64,000 nt of DNA, taken from positions 76,492 to 140,491 of the forward strand of contig JAPLXG010000006.1 in the NCBI GenBank assembly GCA_026396175.1, in the 5' to 3' direction. This document shows, one piece after another, positions 62,998 to 63,865 of this stretch; within the stretch, counting starts at the first letter, position 1; every line of letters begins with the position of its first letter. A program made the translations under genes and the position numbers. Under the pieces are notes generated by a model that saw only the letters and a program-made list of their open reading frames with translations, was not told the origin of the DNA and searched no databases. The DNA comes from Candidatus Moraniibacteriota bacterium. Lineage in GTDB: Bacteria; Patescibacteriota; Minisyncoccia; Moranbacterales; UBA2206.

Positions 62998-63008
62998 ACT
63001 ATTTTCAG

Positions 63009-63136
63009 CGTCGGTTCAGTGTCTCCCGACCTGAACCATTCAGTTCTTGTCCAGACTCTGGGTGATTATAAAGCTTACCAATTTAAAGTTAGCTGATTAG
63101 AAATAAAAGGTTCAATTCGGGAGAATTGAACCGACG
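63009..63136. repeat. Family K palindromic element (uninterrupted copy, opposite orientation to 42506-42670)
   Basis: CGTCGGTTCAGTGTCTCCCGACCTGAACC ... AGTTAGCTGATTAG ... GGTTCAATTCGGGAGAATTGAACCGACG. Confidence 0.7.
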
Positions 63137-63255
63137 AGAGTTTGTAAAATATAACGAAACGGGTTGTAAACCCGTTCCTGCAGAGGCAGGTTTTTCTTTA
63201 AAAATTCAAGTATAAAAAATTAGAATTGGGCGAATTAAATTGGTGAAAAAAGGAG

Positions 63256-63447
63256 GTGATATCATTGGACATCAGCATCGTTGCAGAAAAGGAAAAGAGG
63301 ATAGAAATTTTTTTTGAATCAGAAGAAGATCTGAGTTCATTTTTAGGACAAATGGGGCCTGTTCTAAGCATAACTCCAACAAAGGGAAAATCAATTCTCC
63401 GTGATAAGCTTGTTCCTTCGTTAACTTTTTATATCGAGAGGAGATGA
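63256..63447 (+). CDS. Hypothetical small protein A (63 aa from GTG 63256; TTG 63265 with better SD spacing gives 60 aa)
   Basis: AGGAGGTG SD; ORF only. Confidence 0.4.
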   Translation: MISLDISIVAEKEKRIEIFFESEEDLSSFLGQMGPVLSITPTKGKSILRDKLVPSLTFYIERR

Positions 63448-63507
63448 TGCCTAACTCCTTGTATCTGGCTGGGATAAAAAATTAGAATTGGGCGAAAAGG
63501 AGGGCGT

Positions 63508-63735
63508 ATGAATTTATCGGAGATAAAAGAAAAAATCGAAGCCGTTGATATCGCTTTGCTTTTATTAGCGGGAGTGACAAAAAGGGAGAATTTTTTTGTG
63601 GGAGTGGCAGTGGTAGGTGTTATTGAAAATGATATAGCTCCTGCGATTAAACAGCTCAGAGGATATCGGGAGTATCTCGAACAGGCGAGGGAAACTTTGC
63701 GGGAGGAGGAGAGGCTGAAGCAGTCGAGGGAATGA
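63508..63735 (+). CDS. Hypothetical small protein B (75 aa, central hydrophobic segment, charged C-terminus)
   Basis: AAGGAGGG SD 4 nt upstream of ATG. Confidence 0.45.
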   Translation: MNLSEIKEKIEAVDIALLLLAGVTKRENFFVGVAVVGVIENDIAPAIKQLRGYREYLEQARETLREEERLKQSRE

Positions 63736-63832
63736 GAATTGCTCTTTAAACTTTATTCGAGGGAATGCCCAATCCCTCGAACCCAATTCTAATTTTTTAT
63801 AAAGTTTTCCTGCAAAAATAGATTAAAGACTG

Positions 63833-63857
63833 GATTCCCGCCTGCGCGGGAATGACA
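63833..63857 (+). repeat. Family J hairpin copy 2, 5' of secY
   Basis: GATTCCCGCCTGCGCGGGAATGACA. Confidence 0.55.
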
Positions 63858-63865
63858 CAAAAAAC

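Follow-up and report, generated by a model that had tools for sequence, protein, structure and literature searches.

In integrons, gene cassettes are promoterless, stand in arrays next to intI and are bounded by attC sites with the core sites RYYYAAC and GTTRRRY. Among mobile insertion cassettes (MICs) and MITEs (miniature transposable elements with inverted repeats), terminal inverted repeats surround one or more passenger genes unrelated to transposition (reviewed in PMC10969869; examples of MICs in PMC6199540), and the Correia elements of Neisseria are small intergenic inverted-repeat elements, 100 to 155 bp long and gene-free, with TA duplications, an IHF site, promoters at their ends, and transcript hairpins that are bound or cut by RNase III (PMC2649163). 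At the RNA level, the small-protein gene hbs of B. subtilis has 14 bp of pairing between its 5' and 3' ends which, together with a strong Shine-Dalgarno sequence (SD), limits the access of RNases Y and J1 (PMC5737220), and in icaR of S. aureus, pairing between the 3' and 5' untranslated regions (UTRs) involves a C-rich, anti-SD-like 3' element and creates a substrate for RNase III (PMC3868564). Here we analyzed a window of 64,000 nucleotides (the whole stretch of DNA studied) from a Candidatus Moraniibacteriota bacterium (contig JAPLXG010000006.1, positions 76,492 to 140,491), in which the spacer between the ribosomal protein gene rplO and secY contains two small open reading frames (ORFs), ORF A and ORF B, framed by copies of one short motif. 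These two genes are members of a family of mini-cassettes that is widespread in Candidatus Moranbacteria and had so far gone unnoticed, each unit consisting of a leader, an SD, a small gene, a hairpin, and a trailer complementary to the leader. Full-text searches of the literature turned up no account of cassettes of this kind in either Patescibacteria or Moranbacteria.

Each of the nearest concepts, namely, 5'/3'-UTR pairing, MICs and MITEs, Correia elements, and integron cassettes, shares some features with this family and fails on others. As in hbs and icaR, leader and trailer are complementary within what would be one short mRNA, and, in a further likeness to icaR, the 3' arm of the cassette hairpin resembles CUCCC or CCUC. 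However, hbs and icaR are single genes with idiosyncratic pairings, of 14 nt or directed at the SD, whereas the cassettes have an invariant frame of 19 to 21 nt around more than 40 unrelated genes, and their pairing would lie at the extreme ends and not over the SD. With MICs and MITEs they share conserved ends, a variable interior, and cargo-less derivatives; in contrast, neither a consistent target-site duplication nor, in about 120 loci, a parental insertion sequence or transposase with matching ends was found, and the cassette ends show strand-specific constraints in the manner of RNA, the promoter being confined to one side and the hairpin to the opposite one. Like Correia elements, the cassettes may affect neighboring genes (the trailer adjoins secY at two related loci, L100 and L142; related loci are designated L and a number throughout), but they carry a gene and have no sequence similarity to these elements. 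The likeness to integrons lies in the many unrelated small genes with the same conserved, partly palindromic boundary, and in cargo that varies at one locus between relatives. Unlike integron cassettes, however, they have no RYYYAAC...GTTRRRY at their boundaries and no intI, are solitary or at most two in tandem, and each have their own promoter and SD; the only recombinase seen was a generic tyrosine recombinase on L201, 3 kb from the cassette. Type I toxin-antitoxin systems of the hok/sok kind combine a small hydrophobic membrane toxin, an antisense RNA, and an mRNA that folds back from 5' to 3'; of these features, 5'-3' complementarity is present in the cassette, ORF B has no full-length transmembrane segment, and 11 of 53 cargos have one. 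We regard it as possible, though on balance doubtful, that the cassettes constitute a distinct, lineage-specific system.

Small-gene cassettes with a constant frame

The spacer between rplO and secY, given as 868 bp in the initial annotation, consists of several stacked insertions, and its core (63191-63801) is two fused cassette units. The initial annotation had described a 23-bp motif that occurs twice directly and once inverted, and this arrangement was borne out: the leader ATAAAAAATTAGAATTGGGCGAA is present as an exact match at 63212-63234 (63212 being the true start of the first copy) and 63474-63496 on the plus strand, and the trailer CCCAATTCTAATTTTTTATA lies at 63782-63801 on the minus strand as a perfect reverse complement of the leader (19/20 nt). 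No further copy was found in the window, whether with up to 3 mismatches or with profile hidden Markov models built from many copies (chance expectation 0). The left outer flank of the first copy (tttttctttaaaaattcaagt, 63191-63211, plus strand) bears TAAAAAT, a -10-like sequence. Both leaders are followed by an AAGGAGG SD on the plus strand, at 63250-63256 for ORF A and 63497-63503 for ORF B. ORF A (60 amino acids [aa], 63265-63447, plus strand) lacks both a hairpin and a trailer of its own. Downstream of ORF B (75 aa, 63508-63735, plus strand), a hairpin was found in front of the inverted copy, as previously noted; it occupies 63756-63781 on the plus strand, with the arms TTCGAGGGA and TCCCTCGAA and the loop ATGCCCAA, directly abuts the trailer, and is identical in L142. 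The view that small genes with an SD are atypical for this genome also stood, since, among 53 long ORFs in the window, only 5 carry an SD-like motif and 48 do not. A search of Rfam returned nothing at gathering or relaxed thresholds, the sole matches being sub-threshold ones to hairpin-like families.

The 19-mer ATAAAAAATTAGAATTGGG was present as an exact match in 118 metagenome stretches, of which at least 81 had a recognizable cassette end and about two dozen were unrelated, AT-rich chance matches. Plus and minus copies stood 230 to 400 nt apart in 38 stretches, all in one common architecture: the invariant 20-nt leader AATAAAAAATTAGAATTGGGC, C(T/G)A, an A-rich spacer, AAGGAGG, a start codon, an ORF of 40 to 150 aa, a GC hairpin, and a trailer that is the exact reverse complement of the leader and ends in U6AU. 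For the 64 distinct cassettes collected, the medians were 306 nt for the total length, 66 aa for the cargo, 26 nt from leader to start codon, and 38 nt from stop codon to trailer. An SD was found in 63 of the 64 (AAGGAGG in 34), the start codon was ATG in 56, and at more than 60 loci the ORF always read from the leader toward the hairpin.

The cargos fell into more than 40 unrelated families. When 42 cargo representatives were compared with Pfam, the one solid match was an M23 peptidase on L096, in addition to a few weak zinc ribbons, and none of the 42 matched the defense models of PADLOC; 11 of 53 cargos had a membrane-like stretch. The ratio of nonsynonymous to synonymous substitution rates (dN/dS) was 0.11 to 0.6 in four of the six cargo pairs with measurable dS, and we therefore take the cargos to be real genes. 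In four further pairs dS was saturated. The ends remained identical in all these pairs, even where the dS of the cargo was saturated, and the frame is thus much more constrained than synonymous sites. Bacteria of the candidate phyla radiation (CPR) have tiny genomes with many unannotated small ORFs, and to our knowledge almost nothing is known about their gene regulation. For Moranbacteria, the 20-nt signature provides a search handle with which a hidden class of dozens of unrelated, rapidly evolving small-protein genes can be found and counted.

Every host that could be named was Candidatus Moranbacteria. Housekeeping proteins neighboring the cassettes on L183, L165, and L113 were identical to NCBI proteins with that name, and the neighboring one on L158 has accessions that belong to this GW2011 Moranbacteria series. 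Neither 80 ribosomal loci of Moranbacteria nor the viral contigs of IMG/VR, where a single match was a coincidental one in coding sequence, yielded a cassette, and never more than two stood in tandem; the cassettes are therefore sporadic and solitary or at most paired. Two loci held a frame without cargo. On L157 (minus strand, around 7632), this frame is a 15-bp stem with a 3-nt loop, and on L149 (1763-1829) it is a 67-nt leader-trailer hairpin at a place where the relative L163 has a gene. The latter was considered as an ancestral empty site and rejected, because half of the 3' hairpin is retained, as in a deletion derivative.

L100 and L142 carry one cassette each exactly at the rplO-secY site, with the same left flank and hairpin subtype as the window, and in both the trailer ends 5 nt upstream of the secY ATG (L100 1415-1441; L142 613-639). 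Between the window, L100, and L142, identity was 79 to 85% for secY DNA, 86 to 94% for the 3' UTR and trailer, and 88 to 94% for the left flank and leader (computed over 52 nt including the motif), compared with 50 to 54% for the cargo ORFs and 50% for shuffled cargo. The frame is conserved equally to or better than the adjoining secY DNA, and even cassettes that share a locus have cargos whose DNA identity is near-random. On the SecY tree, these three cassette bearers were interspersed with L002, L003, L004, and L006, in which the site has no cassette; L004 is sister to L100 and L006 to L142.

Both ORF A and ORF B look coding, each outscoring the other five reading frames under a codon model fitted to the genes of the window. 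For ORF A, which had been given as 63 or 60 aa, we kept the 60-aa form with the TTG start at 63265 and discarded the 63-aa form, because its GTG overlaps the SD and the TTG form fits the MDI start of the homologue. This homologue, P0011 (60 aa, 44% identity, library-wide E of 5e-5), was the one true match among 1.8 billion representatives, and it is the sole gene of a complete cassette on L201, where the genomic context is unlike that of the window. ORF B was homologous to the cargo of L100 at the same locus, a weak but specific match (E of 2.6e-4, shared NDIAPAI). The observations that would have spoken against the initial annotation, ORFs without conservation and a motif that is a genome-wide promoter element, gave a mixed outcome: both ORFs have rare homologues, and the motif is not a genome-wide promoter here, but it does recur across Moranbacteria as the common frame of a family of cassettes.

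Neither ORF had a match in Pfam or NCBIfam, and no toxin-antitoxin or defense domain was found with Pfam, NCBIfam, and PADLOC. ORF B has hydrophobic stretches and is predicted to fold as a two-helix hairpin (pLDDT 80). In a Foldseek search of the PDB, it matched generic helical hairpins (best E of 0.67) and ORF A gave noise, with all E values above 0.4; a PDB profile search for ORF B found nothing, and a word-indexed homologue search with ORF A, ORF B, or a five-member ORF B-type profile returned only self matches. A similarity between ORF A and SecY was tried and rejected. The tblastn matches downstream of rplO in L002, L003, L004, and L006 fall in SecY codons 30 to 63, e.g., residues 2 to 32 of ORF A (63256-63350) against L002 6568-6669, with a shared FFES and 35% identity, and they were judged to be chance because E was above 3 and one match was repeated across orthologues.

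Probable pairing of the cassette ends in RNA

In six cassettes, canonical promoters (TTGACT-17-TATAAT on L137, L169, L173, L174, and L194, and TTGATT-17-TATAAT on L201) end 10 nt upstream of the leader, and transcription is therefore expected from about the first leader base. The motif thus appears to be a transcribed leader and not a promoter, given the position of these promoters and a pattern of G.U pairs, described below, which needs motif positions 12 to 18 to be transcribed. Of the duplicated promoter or operator that the initial annotation had suggested, the repeated functional leader is retained, but not the promoter or operator role. In the window, the sole promoter-like signal is located before leader 1, and none was seen before leader 2.

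The two ends of a cassette are probably base-paired with each other in the mRNA. Among 37 distinct arm combinations with 19 core pairs, cells compatible with G.U pairing numbered 27 in the sense and 5 in the antisense direction, or 25 versus 5 when counted as events. C>T changes at trailer positions opposite a leader G were seen 14 times, and the equivalent G>A changes in the leader 0 times. Compared to the consensus, the variant frame of L201 had one compensatory change from A-U to G-C and two G.U pairs. Predicted folds showed a panhandle of 19 to 20 bp together with the hairpin, both for ORF B alone and for ORFs A and B together, in which case either leader can close with the trailer. In 21 cassettes the leader was exact and the trailer variant, and in 8 the trailer was exact and the leader variant, which suggests that the leader has an additional, sequence-specific role and that the trailer may be kept mainly as its complement.

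The hairpin next to the trailer varies in sequence between cassettes, yet its stems remain complementary. Across 38 ends there were 12 distinct basal 7-mers, each with its own complement upstream, compared with 0.1% in the cross-cassette control. This comparison of own and other 7-mer complements replaced RNAalifold, which gave no structure on the trailer ends because MAFFT misaligned stems of unequal length. The loop was GCCCA(A) in 26 of 35 variants, a sequence that also repeats the start of the trailer. Counts of G.U versus A.C at the base of the hairpin were uninformative.

Our preferred explanation, in which we place about as much belief as doubt, is a self-contained expression cassette for a small gene, the mRNA ends of which pair with each other. 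Each unit would be its own transcription unit, with an mRNA that begins at or just within the leader. In the sense RNA, leader and trailer would form a panhandle of about 20 bp with the hairpin stacked alongside, and this closed structure, together with an unusually strong SD in an SD-poor host, would set how stable the short mRNA is, how it is processed, and/or how it is translated. The conserved ends may double as homology arms, by which cargo could be swapped or added. In the window, an ORF B-type cassette would already have been resident between rplO and secY, as in L100 and L142, and a leader with the ORF A segment, without hairpin and trailer, would have been placed in front of it; among the 64 cassettes, this genome is the only one in which A and B are juxtaposed, having a single trailer in common, and a direct repeat of 23 nt flanks the ORF A segment on both sides.

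Because the ORF A segment has no hairpin and trailer of its own, A and B are probably on one RNA that starts from the left flank, and the single trailer could pair with either leader in this RNA. A terminator-like hairpin follows rplO and the only promoter-like signal precedes leader 1, and the left flank of the cassette would thus drive ORFs A and B and probably secY as well, so that secY probably depends on transcription through the cassette unit. This places the cassette in the transcription path of an essential gene, and in L100 and L142 it stands directly against the secY start codon. There is no SD between the trailer and the secY ATG in these two loci, and since the trailer is 5 nt from this ATG, the ribosome-binding region of secY would fall within the duplex predicted for leader and trailer. 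TCTAAT, a -10-like sequence, is also present in the motif's reverse complement.

If the ends do pair in RNA, they would provide the first case in bacteria of 5'/3'-UTR pairing that is portable and used across a whole family, and a ready-made module of expression and stability to test. More tentatively, the cassettes could form a dedicated, portable framed system for small proteins in Moranbacteria, in which the ends are read by a factor specific to the lineage (an RNase, RNA-binding protein, or recombinase) and are both panhandle and cargo exchange site. Hypervariable small-protein genes would then be swapped, added (like ORF A), or lost at the ends, and the fast-evolving small proteins would amount functionally to a pool resembling an integron or a regulon, perhaps serving defense or interaction with a host in an episymbiotic lineage.

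Several points weigh against pairing as the explanation of the frame. For the commonest left flank (ATAAATTTATTTTTGTCC-N11), no convincing promoter was located, and -10-like hexamers occurred in 18 of 68 leader flanks versus 8 of 43 trailer flanks; as this enrichment is weak, we do not assign a promoter to the main flank type. The compensatory change on L201 was the single true one seen overall, and a shuffle control of arm pairs was uninformative, as every cassette was ascertained via one exact (consensus) arm. Mutation biased toward AT or between strands would push the G.U counts the same way, although an asymmetry of this size speaks against such mutation as the only cause. The invariance of the sequence is itself left unexplained by pairing alone. 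The trailer cannot be an efficient terminator, since it adjoins the essential secY in L100 and L142. Finally, the perfect inverted ends of 19 to 21 nt (about 50 nt in most copies) and the patchy distribution on the SecY tree at the rplO-secY site would fit equally well if the ends served the mobility of DNA.

Alternative explanations

Such mobility is the main rival to RNA pairing, or its complement, and a serious one. Under this explanation the cassette moves as DNA, like a MITE or MIC, with ends that are terminal inverted repeats for a transposase or recombinase encoded elsewhere, genes that are passengers, and RNA effects that are incidental. Conserved ends around a variable interior are as expected for such elements, as are the cargo-less derivatives on L149 and L157 and the different genomic surroundings that ORF A-type genes have in the window versus L201, and the 23-nt direct repeat around the ORF A segment of the window is what recombination at the motif would give. 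However, no consistent target-site duplication was seen in 38 paired cassettes or in the window, and no clean empty site or pair of empty and filled sites was found. In about 120 loci there was neither a transposase with these ends nor a long element between motif pairs, the viral contigs held no cassettes, and the indels examined (L102 versus L186 and L198) were explained by recombination at other repeats. The strand asymmetry of 27 versus 5 and the conservation of the leader above that of the trailer are unexpected for the ends of one transposase, and ends that are identical despite saturated dS in the cargo point to long-term selection in place. We consider a DNA-level mobile cassette rather unlikely; if the ends were recombination sites, they would represent a new kind of gene-cassette mobility.

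It is improbable that the motif is a DNA-level signal of a regulon, i.e., an operator or promoter for a dedicated regulator or sigma factor that is placed at both gene ends for looping or bidirectional control. This would account for an invariance that exceeds the needs of pairing and for a leader conserved above the trailer, and TAGAAT within the motif does resemble a -10 box, with a match of TTTAAA-18-TAGAAT at copy 1. Across flank types, however, TAGAAT has no fixed -35 partner, and the six cassettes with canonical promoters have these upstream of the motif and independent of it. Moreover, the strand-specific differences of G.U type at motif positions 12 to 18 lie upstream of any start driven by TAGAAT, and a convergent promoter 3' of every gene has no obvious rationale.

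The initial annotation had also raised the possibility that ORF A and ORF B form a toxin-antitoxin or other two-component small-protein system. They are indeed two adjacent, co-oriented small genes, probably co-transcribed, and the hydrophobic stretches of ORF B would be in line with such a role. But B-type genes stand alone in L100 and L142 and the homologue of A stands alone on L201, from which it follows that the two are not an obligate pair but independent cargos; their combination is unique to this genome among the 64 cassettes, the domain searches described above gave no toxin-antitoxin or defense family, and there was no significant fold match. This proposal was accordingly dropped as very improbable.

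That the ORFs are spurious and the region is merely piled-up, non-coding palindromic repeats is hardly credible: unrelated palindromic elements do occur in the spacer and both proteins are near-orphans, but both ORFs are preceded by a strong, correctly spaced SD and score above the other five frames under the host codon model, ORF A has a homologue of the same length with 44% identity, a block of ORF B is conserved in the cargo of L100, and dN/dS is below 1 in four of six related cargo pairs with measurable dS. Least credible of all is an inverton, i.e., a segment that flips between the perfect 20-nt inverted repeats, which lie 551 nt apart, since the window, an independent Logan contig, L100, and L142 all had one orientation, what lies between the repeats is a gene with its own SD and not a promoter, the neighborhood within the window showed no invertase, and more than 60 loci have the same architecture with the ORF always reading from leader to hairpin. 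Of the mobile or invertible cassette first suggested, what stands is an inserted cassette with real small genes and an inverted end that belongs to the same unit; invertibility does not, with one orientation in all three genomes.

Neighboring genes and separate insertions

The cassette lies downstream of rplO (62533-62997, plus strand, from the ORF list), which encodes L15 (96% identity to L100 and 92% to L002), and upstream of secY, which starts at 63868 on the plus strand and is cut off at the window end (64000). An independent Logan assembly had a gene order identical to that of the window. Spacing was compared with a set of 80 related ribosomal-operon loci, including the close relatives L002 to L005. 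The two genes normally adjoin, as had been stated, with a gap of 21 to 24 bp in L002 to L005 versus 870 bp in the window; the gap between rpsE (61887-62387 in the ORF list) and rplO was 145 bp in the window versus 26 to 44 bp in these relatives. The ORF list also confirmed that no L30 ORF is present between rpsE and rplO in the window. The gene for L30, rpmD, is usually found between rpsE and rplO and not between rplO and secY, and the cassette is therefore not at the rpmD position to which it had been assigned. Nor are ORFs A and B themselves L30, as neither has a Pfam match, ORF A is acidic, and both lie downstream of rplO.

A palindromic element previously called family K was confirmed at 63003-63140, with inverted arms at 63022-63047 and 63099-63124. 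It is missing from L100, L142, and L002 and is a separate insertion outside the cassette. A 29-nt piece of it (27 of 29 identical) recurs at 16500-16528 on the minus strand, apparently within a coding region. Its place in L100 (845-1035) and L142 (163-298) is taken by a MITE-like element with the inverted ends GTCATCCTGAGCG and CGCTCAGGATGACA between rplO and the cassette. A terminator scan found two hairpins downstream of rplO (63156-63190, plus strand), of which the second (63177-63190), followed by a T-run, looks like a terminator after rplO; L100 has a related hairpin. Alignment with L100 and L142 further delimited 61 nt present only in the window (63802-63862), which comprise a degenerate right outer flank and a solo palindrome (ACTGGATTCCCGCCTGCGCGGGAATGACA, 63829-63857) just upstream of secY.

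This palindrome is a solo copy of the right end (matching copy at 62484-62512) of a MITE-like, 122-bp element that fills the rpsE-rplO spacer (62391-62512). The element has 29-nt inverted ends (TGTCATCCTCGCGGATGCGGTGATCCAGT ... ACTAGATTCCCGCCTACGCGGGAATGACA), each itself palindromic (ATTCCCGC-N4-GCGGGAAT), is missing in close relatives, and gave weak, sub-threshold matches to hairpin small-RNA families of Rfam (FtrB and WsnRNA46). In L041 (6538-9098), from another Moranbacteria clade, 2.5 kb with a TypA/BipA-like GTPase and a 106-aa ORF lie between rplO and secY, and several further relatives (among L033, L040, L044, and L047 to L049) have no secY within 6 kb downstream of rplO; the adjacency of these two genes has therefore been broken repeatedly in the phylum.

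Other Moranbacteria contain a different repeated intergenic module, with AAACTTCG.ATA...GATACGTTA..CGAAAT located 5' of genes and an inverted partner, CATCCGATAACA.CG.ATAT, located 3'. It was seen on L183 (1-130, 715-915, and 1880-2100) and on L102 (760-815 and 1720-1830). The near-identical contigs L102 and L186 or L198 differ by gene-sized indels of about 950 bp, which were considered as cases of cassette mobility and rejected, their breakpoints falling in other repeated intergenic elements; recombination between copies of this module explains these indels.

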